From an uncultured Solirubrobacterales bacterium (GTDB taxonomy: Bacteria; Actinomycetota; Thermoleophilia; Solirubrobacterales; Thermoleophilaceae): a DNA stretch of 64,000 bases. Position numbers and translations under genes: made by a program. Under the pieces are notes generated by a model that saw only the letters and a list, made by a program, of their open reading frames with translations, searched no databases and was not told the DNA's origin. The DNA is taken from NCBI GenBank assembly GCA_963715445.1, contig OY970240.1, positions 2,008,839 through 2,072,838 of the forward strand, given 5' to 3'. Shown in pieces: positions 4,443 to 49,790 of this stretch. Numbering within the stretch: position 1 is the first letter of the stretch; each line of letters begins with the position of its first letter.

Positions 4443-4453
4443 GCCGATCTCCA

Positions 4454-4475: not shown

Positions 4476-4501
4476 GCTAGGGCGGCCACTTGCGCTTGTC
4501 A

Positions 4502-4515: not shown

Positions 4516-4519
4516 AGAT

Positions 4520-10042: not shown

Positions 10043-10151
10043 GCGGGGGTTCGCTGGGCCCACGGGTTGCGCGAGCCAACCTGAGCCTATGTGGGCGTGC
10101 AAGTGATCGAGACTCATTCCCGGGAAGGGGGAGGGCGCTTCTGGGTACAAG

Positions 10152-10166
10152 TGAGAATAATTCTCA
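10152..10166. promoter_or_regulatory. 7-1-7 palindrome TGAGAAT-A-ATTCTCA, Zur (Fur-family) box candidate
   Basis: Perfect AT-rich palindrome in the 139-bp divergent CDF/ZnuA intergenic region. Resembles the actinobacterial Zur consensus TGAAAATGATTTTCA. Confidence 0.6.
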
Positions 10167-10181
10167 GTATGTTCTCTCGCC

Positions 10182-11117: not shown

Positions 11118-11131
11118 GAGCGGGGCGAGCC

Positions 11132-11584
11132 TCAGCCCGCGGCGCGGCAGGCCGGGCACTCGCCGTGGAGCGTCACGTCGTGTGCGGCGACGGTGAAGGC
11201 GGTCTTCTCCGCGAGCGTGTGGATTGCCTGCTCGAGCGCATCGTCCTCGAACTGCTCGACGGTCCCGCAGCTGTTGCAGACGATGTGGTGATGGTGCTCG
11301 CCGCCGGGAAGGGCGGGCTCGAAGCGGGCGACTCCCTCGCCGACGTCGAAGCGCTGCACGAGGCCCAGGCGGTCGAGCAGGTCGAGCGCGCGGTAGATGC
11401 TCGCGAGGCCCACGCCGCTGCGACGCTCGCGCAGCAGGTCGGCGATCTCCCTGGCGGTGACGCTGCAGCCGAGCTCGGCGACCGCGTCGATCACCTCTTC
11501 GCGCGGTGCGCTGGCGCGGTAGCCGGCCTGGGCAAGGGTCTGCACGGTGTGCTCGGTCCAGCTCTGGCCTGTCGCGGCGATCAT
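11132..11584 (-). CDS. zur: Fur family transcriptional regulator (probable Zur)
   Basis: SIYRALDLLDRLGLVQR, HHHHIVCNSCG ... ECPAC. Zur assignment rests on the zinc-gene context. Confidence 0.75.
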   Translation of the reverse strand: MIAATGQSWTEHTVQTLAQAGYRASAPREEVIDAVAELGCSVTAREIADLLRERRSGVGLASIYRALDLLDRLGLVQRFDVGEGVARFEPALPGGEHHHHIVCNSCGTVEQFEDDALEQAIHTLAEKTAFTVAAHDVTLHGECPACRAAG

Positions 11585-11623
11585 GCCCCAAGGGTACTCA
11601 GGGAGCGCCGAGTGGCCTGTACG

Positions 11624-11959
11624 ATGGGCCTCGTGACCGGTCGTGATCAGCGCCTGCTGGTGGTGCTAGCGCTCCTCTCCTCTCTGTGCCTGCTCGCAGA
11701 GGCCGCGGGGATGCTCTCGCCGGAGCTGCTCTACGCGGCGCCGCTGCTGCTGGCGTTGCCGCTGCTCATGGGCCGCTACGTCGGTGAGGAGCTGATCTCG
11801 CGGCGCGCAAGGGCCGTTCGCACGCGCCGTCAAGCTCCGCCCCGGCTCTCCGTGCCCGCCGTTGCGCGCCGTGCCCTGCTCTCGGTGCCGCGCGGTGGCA
11901 GGCTGATCGCGGACTCGCTCGCGGTGCGCCCGCCGCCCTCGCTGCTCGTAGCCAGCTAG
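11624..11959 (+). CDS. Small hypothetical membrane protein
   Basis: ATG at 11624 inside shadow ORF 10991..11959. Two hydrophobic segments (LLVVLALLSSLCLLAEAAG, LYAAPLLLALPLLMG). Confidence 0.4.
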   Translation: MGLVTGRDQRLLVVLALLSSLCLLAEAAGMLSPELLYAAPLLLALPLLMGRYVGEELISRRARAVRTRRQAPPRLSVPAVARRALLSVPRGGRLIADSLAVRPPPSLLVAS

Positions 11960-12025
11960 GTCTCCCGCACAGCGCCGTCGCGCTCCTGCGGGGGCCGACT
12001 CAACGCTGCTTCGAGGAGGTCTCGC

Positions 12026-12706
12026 ATGTCCTGCTTCCGCGGTGTGGTCGTGGCGGCGCTCTTGGCGCTCATCGCGACCCCGGCCGCCTTCGCCCACGGC
12101 GGAGGCGGCACCGATTACAGCTCGAAGATCCGGTCGGTAACCCCGGCCGTCTCCGGGCTGCGCGTGCACGTCCTCGATCGGGACGACCGCCTCGAGCTGC
12201 GCAACCGGAGCGGGCGCACCGCGGTGGTGGAGGGCTACAGCCGCGAGCCGTACATCCGACTGGGCGGGGATGGAACGGTCGAGGTGAACCGTCGCTCCCC
12301 GGCGCTCTACCTGAACGAGGACCGCCTCGGCGCGACCGACGTGCCGCCGTCGGCAGACGAGCGGGCCGCGCCCCAGTGGAAGCGCGTGAGCGACTCCGGC
12401 AGGTACACCTGGCACGACCACCGCATCCACTGGATGGGCGCGAAACGGCCGGACCAGGTGCGGGATCCGGGTGTGCGCACGAAGATCTTCGACTGGAAGG
12501 TGCCGCTGCGAGTCGGCGCTCGCAAGGGGGAGATCGCCGGCACGCTGCTCTGGGTCGGCCGGCCGGGACAGAGCTTTCCGCTCGGGGCCGGCATCGGGCT
12601 CGCCGTGGCGATCCTCGGCGGGCTGGCGCTGGTGATCGTCGTGCGCCGCAGACGGCGGTTGGGTTCGAGTGGCGCTGCGTCGCAGCCTGAGCGGGAGGCG
12701 TGGTGA
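12026..12706 (+). CDS. Secreted, C-terminally membrane-anchored protein of unknown function (copper-cluster associated)
   Basis: Signal peptide ending AAFA followed by HGGGG. C-terminal TM LAVAILGGLALVIVV plus RRRRR. GAGGAGG RBS upstream. Overlaps the CopCD start. Confidence 0.65.
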   Translation: MSCFRGVVVAALLALIATPAAFAHGGGGTDYSSKIRSVTPAVSGLRVHVLDRDDRLELRNRSGRTAVVEGYSREPYIRLGGDGTVEVNRRSPALYLNEDRLGATDVPPSADERAAPQWKRVSDSGRYTWHDHRIHWMGAKRPDQVRDPGVRTKIFDWKVPLRVGARKGEIAGTLLWVGRPGQSFPLGAGIGLAVAILGGLALVIVVRRRRRLGSSGAASQPEREAW

Positions 12707-14463
12707 AGCTCACGCGCGCTCGCGGCATCCTGGGGACGCTGGCCTGTGCCGGATGCGCGGTCCTGGCCGCCCTTCCTGCGGATGCTGCCGCGCACGCGGT
12801 CCTCGAGAGCGCTCAGCCCGCCCGCGGAGCCGCGCTGGAACGTGCGCCGAAGCAGGTCTCGCTCAGCTTCAACGAGCCGATCGAGTCGAGCTTCGGGGCG
12901 CTGCGCGTGTTCAACGCCGACGGTGAGCGTGTGGATCGAGGGAGCGCCCAGCGCCCCTCCGGCAGTGCGATCTCCGTGCAGCTGAGGAACGGCTTGTCGG
13001 ACGGGCCTTACACGGCCACCTACCGCGTCGTCTCGGCCGATTCGCATCCGGTCGTGGGCGGCTACGTCTTCACCGTCGGCAAGGCGGGCGGCCTCGCTGC
13101 CGCCTCCGTCGCCGAGCTGCTGGATGCGGAAGCGGGGCCGGTCACGGAGACCGCGTTCGGGGTGGTCAGGGCCGTTGGCTACGGCGCGATCGCGCTGCTG
13201 ATTGGCGGGCTCGTGTTCCTGACCCTCGTCTGGCTGCCCTCGCTGCGGGCCGTCGGTGGTGCTCGGGAGGGTGCGGGGGAGGCCTTCGAGCATCGAGCCG
13301 GGCGCCTGCTCGTGGGCGCCGCGCTCGCGGGCCTCTTGAGCACCGTGCTCGGAATCGTGCTGCAGGGAGCCACCGCGAGCGGCGGGTCTTTCTGGTCCGC
13401 GCTCGACACGGGCGTGATCCACGACGTGCTCAACACCCGCTTCGGCACCGTGTGGAAGCTGCGCGTCACGGCTTTCGGGCTGCTCGTGCCGCTGCTGCTC
13501 TACCTGCCCGCTCTGCGTGGAAGGCGCGAGGTGAAACGCGAGGCGGCGCTCGAGCTGCTGCGGAACGTGGCGCTCGTCCTGGCGCTCGCCTACCTGGCCG
13601 TCTCGCCGGCGCTCGCGGGCCACGCCGCCGCGGGCGATCAGGCCGCGCTGCTCGTCCCGCTTGACGTGCTGCACGTGCTCGCGATGAGCGTCTGGGTCGG
13701 CGGCGTTGCGCTGCTCGCGCTGGTGGTGCCTGTAGCGACGCGGCTGCTCGACCCGCCCGATCGGACCCGCCTGCTCGCCACGGCGGTCTCGCGGTTCTCC
13801 ACGATCGCTCTGGCTGCGGTGGTCGCGCTGCTGGCAACCGGGATCTTCCAGTCGATCCTCCACCTCGACGCGTTCGCCGACCTCGTAGACACGGCGTTCG
13901 GCAGGGCGATCCTCGTCAAGTCCTCGATCTTCGTCGCGCTGGTGGCGATCGGCGCCCACAACCGCCGCCGCTCCCAGCCCGCGCTCGCGCGGCTGGCATC
14001 GGGGGGAGAGCCTCCCGGACGCGCCGGCCTCGTGCTGCGGCGAGCGCTGCGGGCCGAGGTGGGTCTGATGGTCCTCGTCCTCGGCGTGACGGCCGCGCTC
14101 GTGAGCTACTCGCCGTCGGCCGGCGTTCAGAGCGGGCCGTTCTCCGGCACCGCCGAGCTTGGGCCGGCGCGGCTCGAGCTCACGGTCGATCCCGCACGCG
14201 TTGGCCGCAACGAAGTCCACGTCTACCTCTTCAACAGGGGCACCGGTGCGCAGTACGACCGGCCCAGCGAGCTGGCGATCAGCGCGGCCGAGCCCGAGCG
14301 CGGCATCGGGCCGCTCGAGCTCCGAGTTCGCAAGGCCGGCCCGGGTCACTACACGGCCCCGGTCGCCGAGCTGGTCCCGGGAGGCGATTGGGACCTGACC
14401 GTGCGGGCGCGGATCTCCGAGTTCGAGGAGCTGAGGGCCGAGCTGGAGGTGCCGGTCCGATGA
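12700..14463 (+). CDS. CopC-CopD fusion copper resistance/uptake protein (YcnJ-like)
   Basis: Signal peptide AAA followed by HAVLESAQP, and CopC motif YTATYRVVSADSHPVVGGYVFTV, followed by a polytopic CopD-like region and a C-terminal extracytoplasmic domain. Confidence 0.85.
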   Translation: MVKLTRARGILGTLACAGCAVLAALPADAAAHAVLESAQPARGAALERAPKQVSLSFNEPIESSFGALRVFNADGERVDRGSAQRPSGSAISVQLRNGLSDGPYTATYRVVSADSHPVVGGYVFTVGKAGGLAAASVAELLDAEAGPVTETAFGVVRAVGYGAIALLIGGLVFLTLVWLPSLRAVGGAREGAGEAFEHRAGRLLVGAALAGLLSTVLGIVLQGATASGGSFWSALDTGVIHDVLNTRFGTVWKLRVTAFGLLVPLLLYLPALRGRREVKREAALELLRNVALVLALAYLAVSPALAGHAAAGDQAALLVPLDVLHVLAMSVWVGGVALLALVVPVATRLLDPPDRTRLLATAVSRFSTIALAAVVALLATGIFQSILHLDAFADLVDTAFGRAILVKSSIFVALVAIGAHNRRRSQPALARLASGGEPPGRAGLVLRRALRAEVGLMVLVLGVTAALVSYSPSAGVQSGPFSGTAELGPARLELTVDPARVGRNEVHVYLFNRGTGAQYDRPSELAISAAEPERGIGPLELRVRKAGPGHYTAPVAELVPGGDWDLTVRARISEFEELRAELEVPVR

Positions 14464-14539
14464 CCGCTTACCGAACGACCCACGGACTTGACCGAACCCC
14501 AAACCGACTTGTCGAACCATCAACAAAGGAGAAGCAGGG

Positions 14540-15277
14540 ATGACCGATCGAAGGAGCAGTAGGACCTGGAGCAGAGCGGTGGCAGGCGCCGCGGTTGGCG
14601 CTTCGCTGACGCTGGCACTTGCGGTGCCGGCGGCGGCTCACGTGACCATCGAGCCCACCGAGGGACCGGCGGACGGGTACGCGACCCTGGGAATCCAGGT
14701 GCCCCACGGATGTGACGGCTCGGGCACGAAGGTGGTGCGCGTGAAGATCCCCAAGTCGGTGCCGAGCGCGACGCCGCAGGTGCACCCCGGCTGGGAGGTG
14801 ACGACGAAGGAAGGCGCCAAGGACCCGGTCGAGCTTCACGGCGAGAAGGTCACGAGCGGAGTGAGCGAGGTCATCTGGACGGCGCGCGAGGCGGGTCCGC
14901 TGCCCGACGGGCGCCTCGACGTGTTCGGCCTCAGCGTCAAGCTGCCCAACGGCAAGGTGGGCGACCCCGTCTACTTCCCGACGATCCAGGTGTGCGAGAA
15001 GGGGGAGACGGCGTGGATCCAGACTCCCGCCGCGCCCGGGAGCGAAGAGGCGCTCGAGTCACCGGCACCGGCCGTGGTCTTGACCACAGCTGATGGCGGT
15101 CACGGGGATGAGGGCTCTGGCGAGCACGAGGATGAGGCCGACGCTGCCGCGGCAGGCGATTCGGATGGCGACGACGGCCCGTCCGAGGGACTCGTGATCG
15201 CCGCGTTGGCCCTCGGCGGGCTCGGCTTCCTCACCGGCGTCGCCGCGCTGATCGGCGGTCGCCGCAGGGCCGCCTAG
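14540..15277 (+). CDS. ycnI: YcnI family copper-binding protein (DUF1775) with C-terminal acidic linker and TM anchor
   Basis: Signal peptide AAA followed by HVTIEPTEGPADGYATLGIQVPHGCDGS..., WIQ motif, C-terminal TM. Confidence 0.85.
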   Translation: MTDRRSSRTWSRAVAGAAVGASLTLALAVPAAAHVTIEPTEGPADGYATLGIQVPHGCDGSGTKVVRVKIPKSVPSATPQVHPGWEVTTKEGAKDPVELHGEKVTSGVSEVIWTAREAGPLPDGRLDVFGLSVKLPNGKVGDPVYFPTIQVCEKGETAWIQTPAAPGSEEALESPAPAVVLTTADGGHGDEGSGEHEDEADAAAAGDSDGDDGPSEGLVIAALALGGLGFLTGVAALIGGRRRAA

Positions 15278-24871: not shown

Positions 24872-27040
24872 GTGAGTGACCCGGGCACGACAGAGGGGGA
24901 GTCGCCGGAGGACTCCGAGCCCGCGGCGGAGGTACGCGGTCCTAGCCCACTTGATCCTGATGCGCCGGTATCGACAGAGGGCGACCAACTCGGTCGCCGC
25001 CACTTTGCCCGCCGGTTAGCCAGTCAGATTGAGCTAGCACCTCGAACAGGGTTCGTTGCCGCGTTGGTTGGTCCGTGGGGCAGCGGAAAGACGAGCGTCT
25101 TGCGGATGGTGGAGAGCCGGCTCACGGAGTCGCAACCCGAGGACGAGCCTACGAGGGTCGTTGTGCCCTTCAACCCGTGGCTTGTGAGCGGTAGTGAGCA
25201 ACTCGTCTCGCAGTTTGTCGCAGAGCTCGCCGTAGCCTTGCCTCGCGCTCTTGGATGGAGCCGAGGAGCCAAGGCAGGCGACCGCTTGCAGCGATACGCG
25301 GGGGGCTTGCAAACGCTCGAGCGAGCCCCGGGCGTGGGCTGGATGTTCCAAGTCGCGGGAGCCGTGTTGAATGAGGCGGGACGCCGGGTCGACGACTCTC
25401 CAGCGACGGTCTTCGATGAGAGGGAGCAGGCGTGTCAGGCGTTGAAAGAGCTGGATGTCCATGTCGTCGTTCTAGTTGACGACGTTGATCGACTACAGCC
25501 AGGCGAGATCCAAGACCTGATGCGGATGATCAAGCTGGTCGGTGACTTCCCAAACGTCACTTACTTGCTTGCTTTTGATCGCAAGGTCGTGCGATGTGCC
25601 CTATCCGCCGAGGGCACGGACGGTAGCGAGTATCTCGAGAAGATTGTTCAGATCGAGTATCGACTGCCTGAGCCGCCTCCGGAGATGCTCGAGAAGCTGC
25701 TGATCAAAGGACTAAACCGCGCGGTTGGCACCTTGCCCGACCGTCAACTCGCCTCTGATCGCTGGGAGGCCGTCTACACAGAGATCGTGCGCCCGCTCGT
25801 GTCTCGCCCCCGCCATGTACTCCGGTTTACCAACGCTCTGCCGCTCGCGCTCGATCTTGCGGGAGAGGAGATCAACAAGGTAGATGTGATCGCGTTGACT
25901 GCTCTCCAGGCCCTATCGCCAGGGTTTCACGGGCAGATCCTTGCCCTTCGCGAGGACTTAACGAGACGTGCGGGCAACCTGCTGATGCTGAGGAAGGACG
26001 ATGAGGTTCAACAGGCCAGTGCGGCGCGCCTCAACAAAGCCGCCGAGACGTCGGGCATACCCGTCATCGCGCACGCGATCTACAGGCACTTGTTCCCTGC
26101 TTCGATGGCGGCCTTATCGAACACCTACTTGGATGAGCAGGCAAGATGGCAAGCGGAGCGTCGCGTGGCCGACAGTGAGGTCTTTGACACCTACTTCACG
26201 GCGACGCTCCCGACGGGTGCGGTGTCCGTCGTCGAGGTTCGCGAGGCGGTCGATGCGTTCGCTCACGAACCGGACACCCTTGCGGCTGTGTTGAACGCAC
26301 AGCCGGCAGAGAAGATCCCAGATCTCTTGCAGCGGATATGGGGGCATGTAGACGAGATCAGCCTTCGGGACATTGACCAGTCGCTGCCGGTCCTTGACGC
26401 GCAAGTCGCTCGCCTTCCCGACTCTCCCCCTGGTCTGTGGACGCCAGCCGATCGTGGCCGATCTTTCATCCGCGATCTGGTAGCTCGATTCCCAGAGGGT
26501 GAGCAGCGTGACGGGGCGGTTAGGCGGAAGTTCGAGATAAGTAGCTCGCTCACTGAGAAGTTCATGTGGCTGCGGAGCGTGGGGAGCTGGGAGGACCCGG
26601 CTGATCCCTTCTGCAGTCCGGACCTGAAGGACGCTTTGCGTACGGAGTTAGCTAGGGAAGTGCTCAGCTCAACTCCGGAGGCTCTCTTGGCAGAGGTGCG
26701 TCCGGCATGGTTGCTGCGAACCGCCGAGGACGATGGGGGAGACGATGCGTCGGAGCGCATCGCCGCGCTGCTAGAGGACGGGCGGCTGCTCCCTGCGTAT
26801 CTCGGGGGGTTCGTTGCCTTGATGGCAGGCTCGGCAAATTACGAGCTGCAGTTCGACGAGCTGGAGAAGCGGCAAGGACGCGACCGGCTGTTGACGGCTC
26901 TCGAGCGTGTCGACGCGGCGAGCCTTAGCGACGAGGAGCGAGACAGGACGCGTCAGTTAGCAGAACACTATGGGGGCCAAGCCGACGACGAGCGCACGGA
27001 GCAAGGCAACGATCCTGATAAGGACAGCCGGTCGAGCTGA
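24872..27040 (+). CDS. KAP family P-loop NTPase
   Basis: FVAALVGPWGSGKTSVLRMV (Walker A), then a long insert, then VVVLVDDVDRLQPGEIQDLMRMIKLVGDFPNVTYLLAFDR (Walker B region typical of KAP). 722 aa, no obvious TM insert. Confidence 0.8.
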   Translation: MSDPGTTEGESPEDSEPAAEVRGPSPLDPDAPVSTEGDQLGRRHFARRLASQIELAPRTGFVAALVGPWGSGKTSVLRMVESRLTESQPEDEPTRVVVPFNPWLVSGSEQLVSQFVAELAVALPRALGWSRGAKAGDRLQRYAGGLQTLERAPGVGWMFQVAGAVLNEAGRRVDDSPATVFDEREQACQALKELDVHVVVLVDDVDRLQPGEIQDLMRMIKLVGDFPNVTYLLAFDRKVVRCALSAEGTDGSEYLEKIVQIEYRLPEPPPEMLEKLLIKGLNRAVGTLPDRQLASDRWEAVYTEIVRPLVSRPRHVLRFTNALPLALDLAGEEINKVDVIALTALQALSPGFHGQILALREDLTRRAGNLLMLRKDDEVQQASAARLNKAAETSGIPVIAHAIYRHLFPASMAALSNTYLDEQARWQAERRVADSEVFDTYFTATLPTGAVSVVEVREAVDAFAHEPDTLAAVLNAQPAEKIPDLLQRIWGHVDEISLRDIDQSLPVLDAQVARLPDSPPGLWTPADRGRSFIRDLVARFPEGEQRDGAVRRKFEISSSLTEKFMWLRSVGSWEDPADPFCSPDLKDALRTELAREVLSSTPEALLAEVRPAWLLRTAEDDGGDDASERIAALLEDGRLLPAYLGGFVALMAGSANYELQFDELEKRQGRDRLLTALERVDAASLSDEERDRTRQLAEHYGGQADDERTEQGNDPDKDSRSS

Positions 27041-27648: not shown

Positions 27649-28338
27649 TCACGGGTCGTCGTCGGCTCCAGGAGGGTCGCGCAGCACCGCGAGGCCGCTA
27701 GCGATCTGGTCTAGCTTGCCGCCGAGCGGCGTCAGGGATTTGTCTATCTGCTCGCCGAAGGCTTGTGCCAACCTGCGCTCAGGGTCGGCCGCAAGGAATC
27801 GCTCCCGCGCTCCGCTGAGAGCGTCGCGCCAATCGGCGAGCTCAAGGAAGTGCTCGTCAACGAGATGCGTCTTCCCACTGGCGTCCTTCATCGTGCCGGT
27901 CAGCGAGACGCCGGCATAGGTCGCTGGTAGCGAGTTGATGTTGTCCGACAAGCCGCCAGGCGGCATGAAGTCTCGCTGCTCGCCGCTGCTGAGAACGTTC
28001 TTTCGCCAACGCCGCTCGTCCTTAGCGGTCTCAGCAGCGATTGGCTTGAAGACGATTCGGACATCCACGGCGAATGCAGCTCCCGGACCTACGTTGCGTA
28101 TCGCGACGGTGACGGTCGCGGGTCCGAGACGATGAAACTCGATGGCCAGCTTCGGCAGGATGGCGCTCTCGCGAGCGAGCTGCATCTCGGCGACCATGCG
28201 CCGGTTCTGGATCGCGTAGTAGACGGTGACGGCAATCAACACCGCCGTGAGCAGCGCGGTAAAGGCACCTTGGTGAGCGTCTAGGTAGTCGATCACGGGC
28301 GTGATTGGGATCTGCACATCAGTTGGCGCGCGATACAT
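27649..28338 (-). CDS. Hypothetical N-terminally membrane-anchored protein
   Basis: TM FTALLTAVLIAVTVYYAI followed by a roughly 180-aa domain with no recognised motif. Confidence 0.5.
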   Translation of the reverse strand: MYRAPTDVQIPITPVIDYLDAHQGAFTALLTAVLIAVTVYYAIQNRRMVAEMQLARESAILPKLAIEFHRLGPATVTVAIRNVGPGAAFAVDVRIVFKPIAAETAKDERRWRKNVLSSGEQRDFMPPGGLSDNINSLPATYAGVSLTGTMKDASGKTHLVDEHFLELADWRDALSGARERFLAADPERRLAQAFGEQIDKSLTPLGGKLDQIASGLAVLRDPPGADDDP

Positions 28339-28475: not shown

Positions 28476-28548
28476 TACCGCCACGGGGATTCGAACCCCG
28501 GTTTCCGCCGTGAGAGGGCGGCGTCCTAGTCCCCTAGACGATGGCGGC
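28476..28548 (-). tRNA. tRNA-Glu (anticodon CTC)
   Basis: GCCGCCATCGTCTAGGGGACTAGGACGCCGCCCTCTCACGGCGGAAACCGGGGTTCGAATCCCCGTGGCGGTA. Anticodon loop CTCTCAC. G1-U72 wobble. 73 nt. Confidence 0.85.
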
Positions 28549-28643
28549 GCGGCGGTCGATTGTACAACTGGACCGCCGATGCGCCCAGACGCCTCGAAGA
28601 AGGGGCAGCGGCGGCGAGCGCGATGGCTGTGTCTGACGCGCGG

Positions 28644-28820
28644 GTGTAGGCTTGCCGTGTTCATACGGCCGGTGGCCAGGGAAGTCCGGTGTGAATCCGG
28701 CGCGGTCCCGCCACTGTGACAGGGCGTTGAAGCCCCGCACGACCGCAAGGTCAGCCACTGAGAGCCCTACGGGCGATCGGGAAGGCGCGGAGCAGAGCCC
28801 CAAGCCAGGAGACCTACCTC
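28644..28820 (+). promoter_or_regulatory. Cobalamin (B12) riboswitch
   Basis: Core CAGGGAAGTCCGGTGTGAATCCGGCGCGGTCCCGCCACTGTGA and B12-box-like AGCCAGGAGACCTACC. Candidate P1 pairing GTAGG/CCTAC. Sits 40 nt before the first operon ATG. Confidence 0.8.
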
Positions 28821-28858
28821 CGGCCGCGATCAGTCAACCCTCGAGGAAAGGGCGATCT

Positions 28859-29848
28859 ATGCAGATCTCCACTCGACGTTCCCTGCGCGGGCTAGCGGTT
28901 TCCGCCTGCGCTGTTACCGCCGTTGCCGCGGCTCCGATGGCGGCCAACGCCGCCACCACCGCCGACCTCCGCGTGGAGGCAGGCGGCAAGACGCTCGTCC
29001 CATCCGGCTACTCGTTCGCAACCGACACGGTGAAGGCGAAGACCGACACTCGTCCCGAGTGCGGTGGCTCGGGCAAGAGCGTGACGCTCGACGGGCCCAA
29101 TGCGCTCGGCCTGCTCGTTGACGCTTCGAGCGCTCGCAAGCCGCTGGCCCCTGTCGGAGTCTCTGACAAGTTCAGCTTCGGCCTGCTCGTCTGCGGCGTT
29201 GGTCGGTTCATGTCCGATGCCACGTCGTTCTGGCTCTACAAGGTCGATCACAAGTCGCCTGAGGTGGGCGCGGAGCAGTTCGCGCTGACCGGTGGCGAGG
29301 AAGTCCTCTGGTTCCGCCAGTCGGGCGCCGTGAACAGCGGCTCCGAGCTGGCGATCGAGGCTCCCGTGCGTGCGAAGCGCAAGGGTGCGTTCGACGTCAC
29401 GGTGGTCGCCTACGACTTCGCCGGCAAGAAGACCCCGGCGGCAGGGGCGCAGGTGAACTTCCCCGGTGGCAGCGCCATCGTGGGAGCCGACGGTCGGGCC
29501 GAGGTGAAGGTCTCCAAGGCCGGACAGGCCAAGCTCAGCGCCACTCGCGGCATCGACATCCCCACCGGGGCTGTTGAGGTCTGCATCGGCAAGAAGCTCT
29601 CCGACTGCTCCGCCAAGCGCGGCAAGCGGATCTTCGGCACGCCCAAGGGCGATGAGCTCAAGGGCACAGGCGGTCCCGACGTGATCAGCGCCGGCGCAGG
29701 CAAGGACGAGATCGACGTTCGCCGGGGCGGCGAGGACAAGGTCAAGTGCGGCAAGGGCCGTGACAGCGTCCGCATCGGCAAGGGCGACAGCGCCGCGAAG
29801 GACTGCGAGGTCGTGAACGGCGAGCCGCGCAGCGCAGGCAAGAAGTAG
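28859..29848 (+). CDS. Secreted DUF4430-like protein with Ig-like middle domain and C-terminal RTX-like Gly/Asp repeats
   Basis: Signal peptide ...MAANA. FWLYKVDHKSPEVGAEQFALTGGEEVLWF (DUF4430 signature). GTPKGDELKGTGGPDVISAGAGKDEIDVRRGGEDKV repeats. ATG at 28859 after GAGGAAAGGG. Confidence 0.7.
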   Translation: MQISTRRSLRGLAVSACAVTAVAAAPMAANAATTADLRVEAGGKTLVPSGYSFATDTVKAKTDTRPECGGSGKSVTLDGPNALGLLVDASSARKPLAPVGVSDKFSFGLLVCGVGRFMSDATSFWLYKVDHKSPEVGAEQFALTGGEEVLWFRQSGAVNSGSELAIEAPVRAKRKGAFDVTVVAYDFAGKKTPAAGAQVNFPGGSAIVGADGRAEVKVSKAGQAKLSATRGIDIPTGAVEVCIGKKLSDCSAKRGKRIFGTPKGDELKGTGGPDVISAGAGKDEIDVRRGGEDKVKCGKGRDSVRIGKGDSAAKDCEVVNGEPRSAGKK

Positions 29849-29858
29849 TAGTCGAGCG

Positions 29859-30626
29859 ATGAACCTGCCCAGGCTCAAGGCACGCATCGCCGCGGGGGCG
29901 CTCGTCGCCTGCGCGGCGGTCGTGCCCGCCTGGGCTGGGCCGCTCGCGACCGGTGCCGCGGCGCCGGTCGCATCGCTCTCCGCGGGACCGTTCCTGGATC
30001 ACACGGTCGCGTTCCGCGGGAGCAAGGTGCTGGTCAAGAAGGTCAAGGCTCCTGCCGTCACCGTGCGCGTTGGCAAGCGCAAGCGCTGCGCGGTGGCGGC
30101 ATGGACGCCGCTCGCCGCCCTGGTGCGGGCGAAGCCGGGCAAGGTCCTCCTGAAGGACTTCGGATCCTGCTCGCTCAAAAACGCCCAGGACGGGGCGGGG
30201 CTGTTCGTGAAGTCGATTCGTGGCCAGCAGAACCATCGCCAGGACGGCTGGGTCTACAAGGTCGGCCGTCGGCTCGGCACCGCCGGGGTGGCCGATCCCT
30301 CGGGGCCCTTCGGTAGCGGCCGCCTGCGCGCCGGTCAGCGGCTCCTCTGGTTCTACTGCGTCTACGAGGACGGGAGCTGCCAGCGGACGCTGGAGGTGAA
30401 GCTGAAGGATCAGGGCGGCGGCATCGCCTCGGCGTTCGTCAGGGGCTTCGACGACGGTGGCAACGGGGTGCCCGTGGAGGGCGCCAAGGTCACCGCGGGA
30501 GCTGCATCGGCGATCACCGGGGCGGACGGCAGAACGAGCCTGCAGCTGTCGCAGGGCCTGCACGTCGTGTACGCGTCCAAGGCCGGGGCGATCCGCTCCT
30601 TCGGCGAGCGACTGACGGTGCGCTGA
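29859..30626 (+). CDS. Secreted DUF4430-like protein with C-terminal Ig/carboxypeptidase-regulatory-like domain
   Basis: Signal peptide ...VPAWA. GWVYKVGRRLGTAGVADPSGPFGSGRLRAGQRLLWFY. Confidence 0.65.
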   Translation: MNLPRLKARIAAGALVACAAVVPAWAGPLATGAAAPVASLSAGPFLDHTVAFRGSKVLVKKVKAPAVTVRVGKRKRCAVAAWTPLAALVRAKPGKVLLKDFGSCSLKNAQDGAGLFVKSIRGQQNHRQDGWVYKVGRRLGTAGVADPSGPFGSGRLRAGQRLLWFYCVYEDGSCQRTLEVKLKDQGGGIASAFVRGFDDGGNGVPVEGAKVTAGAASAITGADGRTSLQLSQGLHVVYASKAGAIRSFGERLTVR

Positions 30627-31552
30627 TGCGCCGGGCGCCGCTGCTGTGCTGCCTGGCGGCGATGGCCGCGGTGGCCGGCTGCGGGTTCGGCCCTGGTGAC
30701 GAGCAGTCGGGCAAGGGGGTCGACCTGCGGGTGACGCGGGACTTCGGCCACGAGCTGCTGTCCTCGGAGGGAAGCCGCCCGATTCGCGAGGGCGAGACGG
30801 TGATGCGCCTGCTGCGCTCCAGCAACGAGGTTGGAACGCGCTTCGGCGGCGCCTTCGTGCAGTCGATCGACGGCTTGGAGGGGCGCGGCGCAACCGGGGC
30901 GCACGACTGGTTCTTCTACGTGAACGGGATCGAGTCGGACCGCGGCGCGGCCGATTACGAGCTCTCGCCGGGAGACGTCGTCACCTGGGACTACCGGGAC
31001 TGGGGGGCGGCGATGGGCGTGCGCGCGATCGTCGGCGCGTTCCCGCAGCCGTTCATCGGCGGGCTCGACGGCAAGCGCTTTCCCGTGCGGGTGGAGTGCG
31101 AGGACGCTTCAGGAGATCCCTGCGAGGAGGTGAAGGAGCGCCTTCGTGACCTCGGGGTGCCCGCCACGGGCGCATCGCTCGGCGCGCCCGGGACCCAGCG
31201 CGTGGCGCGGGTCGTGGTGGCCACCTGGAGCCGCGCGCGCGAGCTGCCGAGCGCGCGCCAGCTGGAGCGCGGGCCGAAGATCAGCGGGGTGTTCGCCCGC
31301 TTCGCCGAGGACGGCGCGGCGCTCGAGCTGCTCGGCGAGGACGGCGAGACCGCCCGCACCGATCGCGCCGGTGGTGGCCTGGTGGCCGCGCTGCGGCCGA
31401 CCGACGACGAGCTGCTCTGGCTGGTCGTGGGAGTCGATGATGAGGGAGTCGAGAATGCCGCCGAGGCCTTCCGGGCGCGAGACCTGCGCGACGCGTTTGC
31501 GGTCGCGGCGGGCCCGGAGGGAGTTCACAAGCTGCCGCTGGAGATCGAGTGA
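30626..31552 (+). CDS. DUF4430-like lipoprotein
   Basis: Lipobox AAVAGC. DWFFYVNGIESDRGAADYELSPGDVVTWDY. Its ATG overlaps the preceding stop (TGATG). Confidence 0.7.
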   Translation: MRRAPLLCCLAAMAAVAGCGFGPGDEQSGKGVDLRVTRDFGHELLSSEGSRPIREGETVMRLLRSSNEVGTRFGGAFVQSIDGLEGRGATGAHDWFFYVNGIESDRGAADYELSPGDVVTWDYRDWGAAMGVRAIVGAFPQPFIGGLDGKRFPVRVECEDASGDPCEEVKERLRDLGVPATGASLGAPGTQRVARVVVATWSRARELPSARQLERGPKISGVFARFAEDGAALELLGEDGETARTDRAGGGLVAALRPTDDELLWLVVGVDDEGVENAAEAFRARDLRDAFAVAAGPEGVHKLPLEIE

Positions 31553-32466
31553 GCGCCGGGGGGTGGGGAGGACCGCTGAGCGCCGGGCGCATGGTTCCGG
31601 TCTACCGTCAGCGCGCCAGCCCTCTTCACGCCGCGCGCGCGAGCGTCACCGCATCTCTCTGCGCGGCGTTCGCCCTCGTCTGCTCGCTGTACGAGAGCCC
31701 ATTCGTGCTGCTCACTGTCATCGCGGCGGTGGTCGGGCTCGGGGTCGCGGCGGGAGTGGGGCGGGAGCTCGCGCGCACCGCGTTGTTCTCGGTGCCGCTC
31801 GCGCTCCTCGTGATGCTCATCAACCCGCTCGTCTACCGCGACGGGGAGACCCTGCTGATCAGGGGAGGGACCTTCCTCGGCCGCCGCTTCGACATCACGC
31901 TCGAAGCCCTGGCGGCCGGCGGGCTGGCCGGTCTGCGGGTGATCGCCTTCGTGATGGCCTTCGGCCTCTTCTCGGCGTGCGTCGACCCTGACGACATGCT
32001 GCGTGCCTTCCGCCGCTTCTCCTACCGCTCGGCGCTCACCGCGGCGCTTGCCACCCGTCTCGTGCCGGTGCTCGCGCGCGATGCCACCCGCATGGGGGAC
32101 GCGATGCGCTGCCGCCCCACCCAGCCCGGCCGGTTGGCGGTTGCGCGGGCCGCCCTCTCCGGCGCGCTCGACAGGGGTGTGGAGGTCGCGGCGGCGCTCG
32201 AGGTGCGCGGGTACTCACGAGCCGGGAAGCCCGTGCGCTCGCCACGACCGTGGTCGCGTCACGACCTGCGGGTGGCCACGGCTGCCGTCTTCGTCGCTGT
32301 ATCGGCGATTGCCCTTCGGATCGCGGGCGCGGGAGCGATCGAGAAGTACCCGCAGATCGATTTCGCGCCCGGCCCCGCCGACGCCGCGCTCTGCGCCTGC
32401 CTGCTGCTTGCCGCCGCGCTCCCGTTCGCCGGGCGCTCGGCGCGGCTGGGGGTCGCCCGTGCCTGA
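31549..32466 (+). CDS. Energy-coupling factor transporter transmembrane component (EcfT/CbiQ family)
   Basis: YRQRASPLHAARASV..., RSALTAALATRLVPVLARDATRMGDAMRCRP. GTGA overlap with the previous gene; alternative ATG at 31591. Confidence 0.8.
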   Translation: MSAGGWGGPLSAGRMVPVYRQRASPLHAARASVTASLCAAFALVCSLYESPFVLLTVIAAVVGLGVAAGVGRELARTALFSVPLALLVMLINPLVYRDGETLLIRGGTFLGRRFDITLEALAAGGLAGLRVIAFVMAFGLFSACVDPDDMLRAFRRFSYRSALTAALATRLVPVLARDATRMGDAMRCRPTQPGRLAVARAALSGALDRGVEVAAALEVRGYSRAGKPVRSPRPWSRHDLRVATAAVFVAVSAIALRIAGAGAIEKYPQIDFAPGPADAALCACLLLAAALPFAGRSARLGVARA

Positions 32467-32494
32467 TCGCGGACAGTCGATAGGCCAGGACACG

Positions 32495-34114
32495 ATGGTC
32501 GGCCAGGCGCCGCTCGTTCGGGTGGAGGGCTTCTCCTACCGCTACCCCGAGCGCGAGGTGGATGCGCTGCGCGACGTGACGCTCGAGCTCGGCCCGGGGA
32601 GCTTCACCGTGCTGGTCGGCGAATCGGGATCGGGCAAGTCGACGCTCCTGCGCGCGCTCTGCGGGCTCGTTCCCCACTTCCACGGCGGCGATGTGGCCGG
32701 GGAGCTGGAGGTCGGCGGGATGAGCGTGCGGGAGCACGGCCCGGGCGAGCTCGCGGCCGTGTGCGGAACCGTCTTCCAAGACCCCGAGGTCCAGGTGGTG
32801 ATGGGCGGCGTGCGCGCTGAGCTCTCGCTGCCGCTCGAGCACCGCGGCGAGACGCCGGCGGCCGTGGCCCGTGCCGTCGAGGAGGTGGCGCTGACGCTGG
32901 GCATCGCGCACCTGCTCGACCGTCGCAACGACACGCTCTCGGGAGGCGAGCTGCAGCGGGTTGCGATCGCCGCCGCGCTCGTCCACCGTCCGGCCCTGCT
33001 CGTGCTCGACGAGCCGACCTCCCAGCTCGACCCCGTCGCCGGGGACGAGCTGATCTGGCTGTTGCGTCGCCTCAACGAGGAGCAGGGCACGGCGGTCGTG
33101 ATCGCCGAGCACCGGCTCGAGCGCTGCCTGCCCGCGGCCGATCGCGTGATCGCGATCGATGGTGGCGCCGTCGTCTGCGACGCGTCTCCGGAGGAGTTCC
33201 TCGCCTGGGCGGTGGAGGACGGTGGCGGGCTCGCCACGCCGATCTCGAGGCTCTTCGACCTGACCGGCCTCGGCCCGCTGCCGACTTCGGTCAAGGAGGC
33301 CCAGGCGCTGCTCGGTGACGCAGGGCTCGTCCCCGCGCCGGGCGAGCCTCTCCAGCAGACGGCCGATTCCGAGGAGAGAGCGCCGAGGCGCCCATGGCGC
33401 CGCCGCGAGCGTGAGCCGGCCGCCGTGGAGGCACGTGGACTGTGGCACGAGCTGGAGGACGGCGTGGCGATCCTGCGCGGCATCGACCTGCGTGTGGAGC
33501 CCGGCGAGCTGGTCGCGCTGATGGGGCGCAACGGCGCCGGCAAGTCCACGCTCCTGCGCCACCTCAAGGGCCTCGCCGAGCCGACGCGAGGCAGCATCGA
33601 GCGCTCCGGCGAGGTTGCCTTGCTGCTCCAGAACCCGGGCGACTACCTGATCCACGAGCACGCCGGTGAGGAGGTCGGGCTCGCGGGCCTGGCCGCCGCC
33701 GGGCTCGCCGATCGGGAGCAGTCCAACCCGCGCGACCTCTCCGGCGGGGAGCGCCAGCGCCTGGCGCTCGAGATCGTGCTGGAGGGCGGGCCCTGCGCCG
33801 TGGCCTGCCTCGACGAGCCCACGCGCGGCATGGACCGCGCGCACAAGGATGCGCTCGCGGCCCGTCTTGGCGAGCTGGCGCAGGACGGCGCGGCGGTGAT
33901 CGTCGCGACTCACGACACGGAGTTCGCGTCCACCTTCGCCACGCGCGTCGTATTGATGGGACAGGGGGTCGTCATCGCGGACGGCCAGCCCGTCGAGGTG
34001 CTCGCGGGCGGCTGGCACTTCTCGACCGAGGTGGCGCGCGCGCTCGGCGGCGCCGGTGGAGCGCTGACCCCCGAGGAGGGAGCCGAGCTGATCGGAAGGG
34101 AGCTGGCCCGGTGA
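32495..34114 (+). CDS. ECF/ABC transporter ATPase, fused double nucleotide-binding domain (EcfA-EcfA')
   Basis: Two Walker A motifs (GESGSGKST, GRNGAGKST), two signature motifs (LSGGELQR, LSGGERQR), two Walker B motifs (LLVLDEPT, VACLDEPT). Alternative GTG start at 32459 overlaps the EcfT stop. Confidence 0.85.
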   Translation: MVGQAPLVRVEGFSYRYPEREVDALRDVTLELGPGSFTVLVGESGSGKSTLLRALCGLVPHFHGGDVAGELEVGGMSVREHGPGELAAVCGTVFQDPEVQVVMGGVRAELSLPLEHRGETPAAVARAVEEVALTLGIAHLLDRRNDTLSGGELQRVAIAAALVHRPALLVLDEPTSQLDPVAGDELIWLLRRLNEEQGTAVVIAEHRLERCLPAADRVIAIDGGAVVCDASPEEFLAWAVEDGGGLATPISRLFDLTGLGPLPTSVKEAQALLGDAGLVPAPGEPLQQTADSEERAPRRPWRRREREPAAVEARGLWHELEDGVAILRGIDLRVEPGELVALMGRNGAGKSTLLRHLKGLAEPTRGSIERSGEVALLLQNPGDYLIHEHAGEEVGLAGLAAAGLADREQSNPRDLSGGERQRLALEIVLEGGPCAVACLDEPTRGMDRAHKDALAARLGELAQDGAAVIVATHDTEFASTFATRVVLMGQGVVIADGQPVEVLAGGWHFSTEVARALGGAGGALTPEEGAELIGRELAR

Positions 34115-36033
34115 CCTGGCAGCTGTCCTCGTTCGCGATCCTCGCGCTGCTGCTGGTGCTCGGCTTCGGCTGGTACGAACGCCGCCGCCCACCGGCCCGC
34201 GTGGTCGCTCTCGTGGCCGTTCTCGCCGCGCTGGCCGTGGTCGGCCGGCTCGCCTTCGCGGCGATCCCGAACGTCAAGCCCACCACGGACATCGTCCTCT
34301 TCGCGGGCTACGCGCTCGGGCCGATCCCCGGCTTCGCGGTCGGCTCGATCACCGCGCTCGTGTCGAACGTCTTCCTCGGCCAGGGCCCCTGGACCGCGTG
34401 GCAGATGGTCGGCTGGGGCGCCTGCGGCGTCGGGGGCGCGCTGCTCGCGCGGATGTCCGGCGGCCGAGACCTGGGGCGGGTGCCGCTGGCGATCGCCTGC
34501 GGCGTCGCCGGCCTCGCGTTCGGAGCGTTCATGGACGTCTACCAGTGGACGCTCGCCGCCCAGCAGGATCTCGCCACCTATCTGGCCATCTCCGGCACCT
34601 CGCTTCCCTACAACCTCGCTCACGCCTTTGGCAACGTGGGCTTCTGCCTCCTGATCGGTCCGATCTTCATCCGCTCGCTGCGCCGCTACCGCCAGCGCTT
34701 CGAGGTCCACTGGGAGGCTCCGGCTCGAGCGGTCGGCGCCGCGCGGGGCATTGCGGTGGCGGCGCTTGCGGCTCTCGCGATCGCCACGGGGCTCACGGTG
34801 CCCACAGAGTCAGCGCGGGCGGGTGGGCAGCACGCAGAGGCCAGCTCTACACCGGCGGCGCAGCTCGCGGCGGCGTCGCCCGCGAAGCGGGCGGTGCGCT
34901 ACCTGGCGGCGGTCCAGAACCGCGACGGCGGCTTCGGCGGCGGGCGCGGGCTGTCCTCCAACCAGCTCTACACCGGCTGGGTAGCGCTGGGGCTGGCCGC
35001 GGCCCGGCGCAACCCGCGCGACCAGCGGCGGGCCCGCGGCCGGGCGGTCACGCGCTACCTGCGCAGCCAGCTCGGCGGCCTGACCGACATCGGCGAGATC
35101 GAGCGCACCGTTCTCGTCCTGCGCGCGGCGGGGATCTCGCCGCGCTCGTTCGGCGGGCGCGACCTGGTTGCCGACATCGAGCGCCGCCGCCGCCCGAACG
35201 GCTCGATCGCCGAGTACGTCAGCTACACGGCGTTCGGCATCCTCGCGCTGAAGGCATCTGGCGCCCCGGTCTGGGGAACCGCGGCTACCTATCTCGAGCG
35301 CTCGCAGAACTCCGACGGCGGCTTCGGCATAGCGCCCGGTACCTCGAGCGACACGGACATGACCGGCGCGGCCCTCCAAGCACTTGCGGTGGTCGGCCGC
35401 GGGAGCGGGGAGGCCTCACGCCGAGCGGTCGAGTACCTGGTCCGCCGGCAGAGCCCGAACGGGGGCTTCGGCGCCACCGAGGGGCGCGACCCCAACGCCC
35501 AGTCGACCTCCTACGCCGTGCAGGGCCTACTTGCCGTGAAGGGCGCGCCGGGAACGCTGAATCGCGCCATCTCCTACCTGAAGCGCCTCCAGCGTTCGGA
35601 CGGATCGTTCCGCTACTCCAGCTCGAGCGATCAGACACCCGTCTGGGTGACCGCCCAGGTGCTGATGGCCCTGCGCCGCAAGCCTCTGCCGCTGGCCGCT
35701 CTGCCGCGCAAGAAGCGTCCCCGCGCGAGCGCCGCCGCCACTCCGCCTGCCGAGGGGACAGCGCAAGATGGCGCCGCCGCCAAAGATCGGAAAAAGGGCT
35801 CCGCCACCGCCGGCAGCTCCCAGTCCCCGGCGGCCGAGGAGAGCGGCGGGACCACAGCCGCCCCGGCCGCCTCTTCGGAGCAGGCCGATTCTCAGCTCGC
35901 GAGCGCGGCGGCCGATCGCGCCGACGAGGAGGGCGGCGGGTCAACCACGCTGATCGTCCTCGGCGCATGCGCGGCCCTGATCCTCGCGGGCATGCTGCCC
36001 TGGCGCTTTCGCGCCAAGCCTCTCGACGGCTAG
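34111..36033 (+). CDS. Fusion: ECF S-component-like membrane domain, extracellular prenyltransferase/squalene-oxidase-repeat (alpha/alpha barrel) domain, and C-terminal TM anchor
   Basis: N-terminus about 190 aa polytopic (IPNVKPTTDIVLFAGYALGP, GPWTAWQMVGW). Then repeats QNRDGGFGGG, RPNGSI, QNSDGGFG, QSPNGGFG, QRSDGSF. A Pro/Ala/Ser-rich linker and a final TM. GTGA overlap with the ATPase gene. Confidence 0.7.
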   Translation: MTWQLSSFAILALLLVLGFGWYERRRPPARVVALVAVLAALAVVGRLAFAAIPNVKPTTDIVLFAGYALGPIPGFAVGSITALVSNVFLGQGPWTAWQMVGWGACGVGGALLARMSGGRDLGRVPLAIACGVAGLAFGAFMDVYQWTLAAQQDLATYLAISGTSLPYNLAHAFGNVGFCLLIGPIFIRSLRRYRQRFEVHWEAPARAVGAARGIAVAALAALAIATGLTVPTESARAGGQHAEASSTPAAQLAAASPAKRAVRYLAAVQNRDGGFGGGRGLSSNQLYTGWVALGLAAARRNPRDQRRARGRAVTRYLRSQLGGLTDIGEIERTVLVLRAAGISPRSFGGRDLVADIERRRRPNGSIAEYVSYTAFGILALKASGAPVWGTAATYLERSQNSDGGFGIAPGTSSDTDMTGAALQALAVVGRGSGEASRRAVEYLVRRQSPNGGFGATEGRDPNAQSTSYAVQGLLAVKGAPGTLNRAISYLKRLQRSDGSFRYSSSSDQTPVWVTAQVLMALRRKPLPLAALPRKKRPRASAAATPPAEGTAQDGAAAKDRKKGSATAGSSQSPAAEESGGTTAAPAASSEQADSQLASAAADRADEEGGGSTTLIVLGACAALILAGMLPWRFRAKPLDG

Positions 36034-48929: not shown

Positions 48930-49092
48930 TTCGTAAAGACAAGCCGAGTCTCCGTCGCTCCATGCGACGGGGAACGGGGGAACCACTGGGGTCGGCAGCA
49001 CGCCGTCCCCCGGGGCGAATCACCGCCAGCGTGCGGTGTAGCGCACTTTCCAGCGCGAGCCCGTCAGCTCACCCCGTAGGCACCGGAAAGAG
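48930..49092 (+). promoter_or_regulatory. c-di-AMP riboswitch (ydaO/yuaA class)
   Basis: ACGGGGAACGGGGGAACCAC, CCGGGGCGAATCACC and GAGCCCGTCAGCTCACCCCGTAGGC match the conserved ydaO blocks. Located directly upstream of an Rpf-like gene. Confidence 0.7.
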
Positions 49093-49106
49093 GAGTCAAG
49101 AACGTT

Positions 49107-49790
49107 TTGCGCCCCCATGACGTTGCCGTTCAGCATCTCGACTGCCGCCCGCGCGGCATCTCCCGCCTGGCCCGTGCAGCGTTGGCATTCGCCGTTCTGA
49201 GCCTGCTCGGCGCTTCGGCGTCGACCGGCTCGGCGCTGGCGGACGACGTGCAGCCCGTCGGCGGCTCTGCCGGTGCCGCCGTGGCGAGCGCGGAGGAGAC
49301 GCTTCGCGAGGGCGATCGCGGCCCAGCCGTAGAGAGCCTCCAGCGCCGGCTGCGCCTCCCGGCCGACGGCGTGTTCGGCTCCAAGACCAAGAGCGCCGTC
49401 ATGCGCTTCCAGCGGCGCCGCGGCCTCGAGGTGGACGGGATCGTCGGACCGATAACCCGTCGCGCTCTGGGACTCGCCCGCTTCAGCTCGAGCAGCGTCC
49501 GGCACTCCGAGCCCGACGAGGAGAGCGACGTTCGGATTCCCGCCAGGCTGCGGAAGATCGCCGAGTGCGAGTCCGGAGGCAATCCGCGCGCGGTGTCTTC
49601 GAACGGCCGCTACCGCGGCAAGTACCAGTTCTCCCGTGCCACATGGAAGGCGATGGGAGGCAGCGGCCGCGATCCGGCCAAGGCATCCGAGAGCCACCAG
49701 GACCGTGTCGCGCTCAAGCTGTTCAAGGCCCGGGGCGCCGCGCCCTGGCCCTCCTGCGGCGCTCGCGCCCGCTTTCGCGCTCGCGCCTGA
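49107..49790 (+). CDS. Secreted peptidoglycan-binding (PG_binding_1) plus Rpf-like transglycosylase domain protein
   Basis: Signal peptide. GDRGPAVESLQRRLRLPADGVFGSKTKSAVMRFQ. IAECESGGNPRAVSSNGRYRGKYQFSRATW. TTG start 11 nt after AAGAGGAG. Confidence 0.75.
   Translation: MRPHDVAVQHLDCRPRGISRLARAALAFAVLSLLGASASTGSALADDVQPVGGSAGAAVASAEETLREGDRGPAVESLQRRLRLPADGVFGSKTKSAVMRFQRRRGLEVDGIVGPITRRALGLARFSSSSVRHSEPDEESDVRIPARLRKIAECESGGNPRAVSSNGRYRGKYQFSRATWKAMGGSGRDPAKASESHQDRVALKLFKARGAAPWPSCGARARFRARA

Follow-up and report, generated by a model that had tools for sequence, protein, structure and literature searches.

Few microbes make cobalamin (vitamin B12) and many require it, and the mode of its capture shapes microbial communities. 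[quoted passage not shown] We analyzed a stretch of 64,000 nucleotides (nt) from an uncultured Solirubrobacterales bacterium (GCA_963715445.1, contig OY970240.1, forward strand, positions 2,008,839–2,072,838; the whole stretch is called the window below), in which a cobalamin riboswitch is followed by six plus-strand genes (g1–g6). These encode three extracytoplasmic proteins of the SLBB/DUF4430 type (g1–g3), the ECF T component EcfT (g4), a fused EcfA-EcfA' ATPase (g5), and an S component fused to an alpha/alpha toroid (g6). The unit is probably an operon for scavenging and importing corrinoids (B12/cobinamide), in which SLBB proteins would capture the ligand and hand it over, and which cobalamin would switch off through a translational riboswitch.

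The characterized B12/cobinamide importer ECF-CbrT of Lactobacillus delbrueckii (PDB 6FNP; Santos et al., 2018; PMC5997447) shares with the operon a homologous S component, EcfT and two ATPase domains, as well as cobalamin and cobinamide as predicted substrates. Yet, CbrT of Lactobacillus stands bare, with about 180 residues and no toroid, and is encoded in an nrdJ-cbrS-cbrT-pduO cluster, with the general ECF module encoded elsewhere, whereas the operon in the window has an ECF module of its own with fused ATPases, an S component extended by a seventh transmembrane (TM) helix, toroid and anchor, three SLBB paralogues and a riboswitch. We found that the corresponding cluster of Lactobacillus helveticus is organized as nrdJ-DUF4430-cbrT-pduO, with a DUF4430 protein of 136 residues and a CbrT 61% identical to the crystallized one. 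Because the DUF4430 gene adjoins cbrT in this cluster, the gene that Santos et al. (PMC5997447) called "cbrS" in their cluster encodes a DUF4430 protein. In agreement with this, rtpR of L. rhamnosus has a DUF4430 gene as its neighbor (PMC9963975). The small DUF4430 gene is located directly upstream of cbrT in L. helveticus, and such a pair is also found in Thalassobacillus and in an archaeal contig (plus-strand DUF4430 genes: L081/L082 4589–4999; L084 5588–5995; L085/L086 5337–5954), the latter bearing also MCM, GatE-like and PTH2 genes. Given this spread of the pair, the partnership of SLBB proteins with CbrT is ancient and reaches far beyond Thermoleophilia.

Bacterial transcobalamin-like SLBB proteins were predicted to be B12 scavengers from their domain architectures and operons (Burroughs, Balaji, Iyer and Aravind, 2007; PMC1796856). 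The same study noted frequent toroid fusions, paralogous SLBB genes and CbiO/CbiQ neighbors, and inferred that animals had gained such proteins from Gram-positive bacteria. Secreted or surface SLBB proteins, an alpha/alpha toroid, paralogous SLBB genes, and CbiO-like and CbiQ-like genes all recur in the operon described here. In the systems of 2007, found in Firmicutes and archaea, the SLBB domain itself bears the fused toroid (N- or C-terminally) and the S component was then unrecognized; here, in contrast, in Thermoleophilia, the toroid is carried by the S component. From L. sakei, an ECF operon is known whose alpha-like and beta-like proteins are separate, and it has been tied to heme (Verplaetse et al., 2019; bioRxiv 10.1101/864751). 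Like the operon in the window, it combines a dedicated ECF transporter with transcobalamin-beta-like and alpha-like extracellular modules, the latter of the prenyltransferase type by HHpred. In turn, the alpha-like protein of L. sakei is a separate polypeptide, its experiments point to heme uptake, its S component lacks cobalamin-binding residues according to the authors, and the accessible part of the preprint (bioRxiv 10.1101/864751) mentions no B12 riboswitch.

As for the animal carriers transcobalamin, intrinsic factor (IF) and haptocorrin, the operon shares with them a homologous beta (SLBB, DUF4430) domain and the design of two modules, a toroid and a beta-grasp domain. It differs in that the toroid is not a member of PF01122, the modules lie on different polypeptides (the toroid on g6, SLBB on g1–g3), and delivery is to an ABC-type (ATP-binding cassette) importer instead of an endocytic receptor.

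Transporter core, riboswitch and conservation of the operon

The T component, g4 (31549–32466, plus strand; 305 residues), belongs to the CbiQ family and matches PF02361 (CbiQ/EcfT) at 49.8 bits and TIGR02454 at E 2.3e-8. The following gene, g5, starts at 32459 (GTG) or 32495 (ATG) and ends at 34114 (plus strand); it encodes a fused EcfA-EcfA' ATPase with two ABC domains, in which PF00005 is matched in two stretches (160.5 bits) and ECF_ATPase at E 1.8e-76. TIGR04520 (257 bits, E 1e-76) and TIGR04521 (246 bits, E 1e-73) match g5 as well, both under their equivalog cutoffs. The 640-residue product of g6 (34111–36033, plus strand) begins with a CbrT-like S component of six helices (34111–34710, residues 1–200), delimited by phmmer and by the AlphaFold2 (AF2) helices at residues 2–197. 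Residues 30–196 align with residues 10–175 of the CbrT chain 6FNP_A (phmmer E 2.6e-15; family profile E 1.9e-18), the motif PNV[KQ]P[TV]TD is common to g6 and CbrT, and CbrT is the sole S component among the PDB matches of g6. Pfam ECF-ribofla_trS matches g6 at 27 bits. Taken together, these matches support the view that the operon encodes a complete dedicated ECF transporter with a specifically CbrT-like S component, and that it imports corrinoids appears highly probable. The classical description of ECF transporters excludes an extracytoplasmic solute-binding protein; here we found three extracytoplasmic SLBB proteins and a toroid predicted to face outward.

The genes are closely coupled. 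Read from the sequence, g1 and g2 are separated by a 10-nt gap, g2 and g3 share a TGATG overlap, and a GTGA overlap occurs at both the g3/g4 and the g5/g6 junction; g4 and g5 overlap by 8 nt or are separated by 28 nt, depending on the start chosen for g5. An earlier interpretation made from the letters of the window (the sequence-only reading) had described this coupling, as well as EcfT, a fused double EcfA and an S component fused to a prenyltransferase/squalene-oxidase-repeat domain, all of which agree with our results. It had also spoken of seven genes, of which we count six, the number of products in its own list. The genes flanking the operon encode a KAP NTPase, an opposite-strand tRNA, a short-chain dehydrogenase/reductase (SDR), a nitroreductase and GlpD; none of them is related to it, and we therefore take 28631–36033 as the operon unit. 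Long antisense open reading frames over the operon were rejected as high-GC artifacts, being without homology support, while the plus-strand genes are strongly supported.

Upstream of g1 lies a cobalamin riboswitch aptamer (RF00174; 28631–28835, plus strand), which reached 78.2 bits in cmscan (E 1.4e-17; the gathering score is 31.5), over positions 1–189 of the 189-position model and with the B12 box GCCACUG intact, so that the leader suspected in the sequence-only reading to be cobalamin-riboswitch-like is recognized over its full model. The riboswitch is identified by covariance model and position, and cobalamin binding and expression switching are predictions that follow from this assignment. 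The putative expression platform (28836–28861, plus strand) includes the purine-rich ribosome-binding site (RBS) GAGGAAAGGG (28844–28853), 9–18 nt past the aptamer, and reaches the ATG of g1 (28859), 23 nt past the aptamer end. Because no terminator-like site was found between the aptamer and the g1 start codon, and because the RBS lies beside the aptamer in a predicted local hairpin that spans the start codon as well, we infer that control is translational. The platform itself is put forward as a prediction, since the leader as a whole folds with an unremarkable z-score (-0.87) and a terminator was missing.

A scan of a genome collection matched at least 598 species genomes, and the best 80 loci were analyzed; all belong to Thermoleophilia, and they include the cultured Conexibacter arvalis DSM 23288. 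The g3-g4-g5-g6 core is kept in every one of these loci with enough upstream sequence, while genes like g1 and g2 differ among loci, both in how many there are and in their sequence. The riboswitch was detected with an nhmmer profile in 69 of the 69 loci that extend 4.4 kb or more upstream, and cmscan confirmed RF00174 in all 12 loci checked, the weakest included. The first recognized gene starts 21–39 nt past the aptamer in 43 loci, and a secreted g1-like gene starts 9–39 nt past it almost everywhere. Homologues of g6 number in the thousands (556 clusters at 50% identity, E<=1e-30), and the top 120, from Thermoleophilaceae and Solirubrobacterales, are all fused. The joint occurrence of gene neighborhood and B12 riboswitch in relatives, which the sequence-only reading had made a test of its proposal, is thus the rule in these loci, and given the conserved synteny and riboswitch, the arrangement of the operon is not due to chance.

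In two loci we observed a second cobalamin riboswitch, divergent from that of the operon (L004 5396–5576 and L007 4312–4507, both on the minus strand). The one in L004 would drive a minus-strand gene (3986–5368) for a secreted SLBB-like protein of 460 residues. Since the second divergent riboswitch precedes an extra SLBB-like gene in L004 and L007, these loci may possess an extra capture protein under its own B12 control.

SLBB proteins and the toroid of g6

Among the three SLBB proteins, g3 (30626–31552, plus strand; 308 residues) is the clearest case. It is a DUF4430/SLBB lipoprotein composed of a lipobox with Cys19 (30680–30682), which is invariant in 76 homologues, an SLBB domain (residues 56–123; 30791–30994) and an alpha/beta region at the C-terminus (residues 124–308; 30995–31552). 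The protein matches DUF4430 (PF14478) at 54.7 bits. Its AF2 model (predicted local distance difference test, pLDDT, 86) is matched best, among PDB structures in Foldseek, by the isolated beta domain of human transcobalamin (5no0), with a TM-score of 0.69 on the target and a root-mean-square deviation (rmsd) of 2.9 Å, followed by full transcobalamins, IF, haptocorrin and the bacterial structure 3u7z. Human TCN2, used here in the sequence identical to 7qbf_A, itself matches Pfam Cobalamin_bind and DUF4430 (PF14478). A search of the PDB with the g3 family profile retrieved no match to transcobalamin or IF, and hhalign gave E 0.32; the relationship between g3 and transcobalamin is therefore visible through Pfam DUF4430 and Foldseek only. 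By these two routes, the transcobalamin-beta half postulated in the sequence-only reading is supported. The C-terminal ~180 residues of g3 form a confidently modeled alpha/beta region that belongs to no Pfam family and shows a weak, high-rmsd resemblance to BcsB in Foldseek.

The first two genes encode more divergent proteins. The product of g1 (28859–29848, plus strand; 329 residues) has a signal peptide, read as ...PMAANA/ATT, an SLBB/DUF4430-like domain, an immunoglobulin (Ig)-like domain of the CarboxypepD_reg type and C-terminal RTX-like repeats; its DUF4430 match (20.3 bits, residues 116–151) lies under the cutoff of 23.8, and HemolysinCabind is matched at 21 bits (residues 260–290). In turn, g2 (29859–30626, plus strand; 255 residues) encodes a secreted protein with a divergent SLBB and an Ig-like domain, which gave no Pfam match on its own and carries GWxYKV...GxxxLWF motifs in the family alignment. 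The two proteins are paralogous (BLASTP E 8e-8), and both combine a signal peptide with a divergent SLBB domain and an Ig domain like CarboxypepD_reg. In their family, 14 of the 38 members match DUF4430 and 9 match CarboxypepD_reg, and the family profile aligns with that of g3 with an hhalign probability of 96.3% (E 1.7e-9). Hence, g1 and g2 appear to belong to DUF4430/SLBB at the profile level only, and of the three DUF4430 proteins claimed in the sequence-only reading, g3 stands by its own score and the other two through their family.

That g1 and g2 are unrelated surface proteins which share a transcript with an ordinary ECF-CbrT importer seems to us very improbable. Their number and sequence do differ from locus to locus and their own DUF4430 scores are below threshold or absent, as such passengers might be expected to show; against this stand the significant profile homology to g3, the position of a secreted g1-like gene 9–39 nt past the aptamer in essentially every locus, and the extra copy under its own divergent B12 riboswitch in L004 and L007.

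Behind the S component, the AF2 model of g6, built with 121 homologues, shows an extra TM helix 7 (34732–34785, plus strand; residues 208–225), which is preceded by the Arg-rich loop RSLRRYRQRFEVH, and an alpha/alpha toroid of the prenyltransferase/class II terpene cyclase type (34852–35676; residues 248–522; pLDDT about 97). The remainder (35713–36033) consists of a low-complexity linker (residues 535–611, disordered with pLDDT <50 at residues 552–611), an anchor helix (residues 612–633) and a basic tail. At least 54 of the 74 g6 orthologues possess a hydrophobic 18-mer at the C-terminus. Both termini of S components are known to be cytoplasmic. This in/in topology, the Arg-rich loop before TM7 and the positive-inside rule lead us to infer that the toroid faces outside, held between the in-to-out TM7 and the C-terminal anchor with its basic tail, and would thus be tethered to the membrane at both ends.

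By sequence, the toroid matches Prenyltrans (PF00432) at 55.9 bits and SQHop_cyclase_C (PF13243) at 39.5 bits, the matches spanning residues 258–513 of g6, and the g6 family profile retrieves class II terpene cyclases from the PDB at E 1e-27. The top Foldseek matches are drimenyl diphosphate synthase, cyclases of the squalene-hopene cyclase type, MstE, and the beta subunits of farnesyltransferase, RabGGTase and geranylgeranyl transferase. With class II cyclases and prenyltransferase beta subunits, the toroid has in common its fold, QxxDGGF/WG repeat motifs and an acidic residue at the general-acid position. Unlike these enzymes, it is predicted to be extracytoplasmic and tethered by two TM helices, its DxDD motif appears degenerate, it appears to lack zinc ligands, and its fusion partner is the subunit of a vitamin transporter that a B12 riboswitch precedes.

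This kinship raises the possibility that the toroid is an enzyme (class II cyclase-like, corrinoid-processing) or a surface or wall-spanning scaffold, and that capture is the task of the SLBB proteins and CbrT alone. Beside the closeness to terpene cyclases, such a role would accord with the general-acid position 416, occupied by D or E in all 74 orthologues, with the full DxDDT motif in many of them, and with the DUF4430-CbrT pairs of Lactobacillus, Thalassobacillus and the archaeal contig, which lack any toroid. Yet, the positions that flank the general acid are free to vary: residues 414–418 of g6 (35350–35364) read DTDMT, D414 is kept in 36 and D417 in 31 of the 74 orthologues, and the variants include DVDDT, DTDMT, DPDST and TTDGT, many orthologues keeping the full SDVDDTG. 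No Cys or His of the toroid that could serve a prenyltransferase zinc site is conserved at >=95% in the orthologue alignment, and at its predicted extracytoplasmic location the toroid would be far from isoprenoid diphosphates, with no access expected to cytoplasmic or membrane isoprenoid substrates. Furthermore, a part in delivering the substrate is favored by the fusion to the S component and by the SLBB genes with which the toroid strictly co-occurs, and toroid-SLBB fusions are common in bacteria and present in transcobalamin itself (PMC1796856). We consider an enzymatic or scaffolding toroid unlikely.

A triple fusion of CbrT, toroid and DUF4430 was sought as a Rosetta stone, and none of the 8 longest representatives scanned possesses DUF4430. 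In one CbrT-toroid homologue of 816 residues (P0390), we observed an extra C-terminal PAP2 phosphatase domain, which may be a real fusion or an artifact of assembly or gene calling.

Proposed corrinoid capture and hand-over

We propose that cobalamin switches the operon off through the translational riboswitch, and that corrinoids would be captured outside the membrane by the transcobalamin-beta-like SLBB/DUF4430 proteins, g1 and g2 being secreted and g3 a lipoprotein. The corrinoid would then be sandwiched, in a ligand-dependent manner, between an SLBB domain and the toroid, and so be placed above the S component, as modeled on the alpha-Cbl-beta arrangement of transcobalamin (Cbl, cobalamin) and on IF30-Cbl-IF20. 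In the import core of EcfT, fused EcfA-A' and the CbrT-type S component, CbrT would take the ligand and, in the manner of ECF-CbrT, ATP hydrolysis would go with toppling of the S component and release of the corrinoid to the cytoplasm. Binding of corrinoids by the SLBB proteins and the toroid is suggested by analogy with the animal carriers: the isolated beta domain of transcobalamin was crystallized with cyanocobalamin (PDB 5np4), and the fragments of cleaved IF still hold Cbl jointly as IF30-Cbl-IF20 (PMC6257451). We regard hand-over from SLBB to toroid and CbrT as evenly poised. A more specific version, in which the released or lipid-anchored beta-like proteins dock on the S-component toroid in a ligand-dependent manner to form a split transcobalamin, with g1 and g2 acting as "corrinophores" in analogy to hemophores, is offered tentatively, and we lean slightly away from it.

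Several observations weigh against the proposal of corrinoid capture and import as a whole or in part. The toroid gave no match to PF01122 (Cobalamin_bind); transcobalamin, IF and haptocorrin were absent from its PDB profile search at E<=10 as well as from the 50 best Foldseek matches of g6, and hhalign against human TCN2 was not significant (E 0.065). As Pfam, PDB profile, Foldseek and hhalign all gave no such relation, the toroid resembles the transcobalamin alpha domain in fold class alone. The barrel, in which the sequence-only reading had seen the alpha half, is thus not supported as such, and of its picture of both transcobalamin halves as separate modules wired to an ECF transporter, the beta half and the transporter are supported. 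The acidic residue 416 means that the toroid may have a non-binding or enzymatic role, and AF2 leaves the geometry of CbrT and toroid undefined (predicted TM-score 0.57). No B12-dependent enzymes or cob genes were found among about 30 window genes scanned, and we found no report of direct B12 binding or uptake by bacterial DUF4430 or toroid modules in the searchable literature. L. delbrueckii ECF-CbrT transports B12 in Escherichia coli without accessory proteins (PMC5997447), and since it works alone there, the accessory modules may be dispensable. Finally, deletion and complementation tie the L. sakei operon, with its alpha-like, beta-like and ECF components, to heme uptake (bioRxiv 10.1101/864751).

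The last point bears on the identity of the substrate, which could also be cobalt ions for B12 synthesis, another tetrapyrrole such as heme, or incomplete corrinoids only, the SLBB proteins and toroid then binding that ligand. Cobinamide is indeed carried by ECF-CbrT as well (PMC5997447). As regards cobalt, g4 and g5 annotate as CbiQ/CbiO-type. Cobalt transporters (CbiMNQO) too can be under the control of B12 riboswitches. Yet, the CbiM and CbiN families had no match in Pfam, TIGR and PDB scans of the operon proteins, and we rejected the reading as a CbiMNQO cobalt transporter, neither of the two being present. The S component is CbrT-like, and the accessory domain is the one by which transcobalamin grips corrinoids; as for heme, it would make no sense, in terms of regulation, to place its importer under a cobalamin riboswitch, and the clade carries this riboswitch universally. 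A substrate other than complete corrinoids seems quite unlikely, and import of B12 and cobinamide is the reading that we prefer.

The general idea of B12 scavenging by such proteins had been predicted before, in 2007 (PMC1796856), and a split ECF operon is on record from L. sakei; the novelty assigned to the architecture in the sequence-only reading is reduced accordingly, and persists in that the searchable literature reports no B12 binding or uptake for the accessory modules. The layout with an S component fused to a toroid is undescribed in that literature, in which we found neither a toroid that is fused to CbrT and tethered twice to the membrane, nor a set of three SLBB paralogues in such an operon, nor strict riboswitch control across a whole actinobacterial class, nor later studies on B12 uptake through SLBB proteins. 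The operon lends itself to a clean test of accessory binding proteins in ECF transport and is relevant to the proposal that animal B12 carriers arose in bacteria. If the split-transcobalamin version of the proposal is true, the rule that ECF transporters have no solute-binding proteins would be broken in Thermoleophilia, where a split transcobalamin would have been rebuilt atop the translocating subunit, and the system would serve as a living model for the bacterial forebear of the B12 carriers of animals. The case would also give a function to the DUF4430 ("cbrS") genes beside cbrT from Lactobacillus to archaea. Experiments are feasible, since the operon is present in the cultured C. arvalis DSM 23288.

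Genes in the vicinity of the operon

Just upstream of the B12 riboswitch, a tRNA gene is located on the minus strand (28476–28548); L010, L004 and L007 likewise have a minus-strand tRNA, about 1–1.6 kb upstream of their riboswitch. Farther upstream, the window encodes a protein of 229 residues that belongs to no Pfam family (27649–28338, minus strand) and a KAP-family P-loop NTPase (24872–27040, plus strand; 143 bits). A metal-homeostasis cluster at 9110–15277, composed of a minus-strand CDF cation efflux gene, ZnuA, a CopC-CopD fusion and DUF1775/YcnI, is apparently unrelated to the B12 operon. On the other side of the operon, a cyclic di-AMP (ydaO-type) riboswitch (48932–49097, plus strand; 70 bits) lies directly 5' of a plus-strand gene (49107–49790) for an Rpf-like protein with PG_binding_1 and Transglycosylase-like domains. 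L012, L016 and L078, too, have a riboswitch of the ydaO type within about 5–10 kb of the B12 operon.

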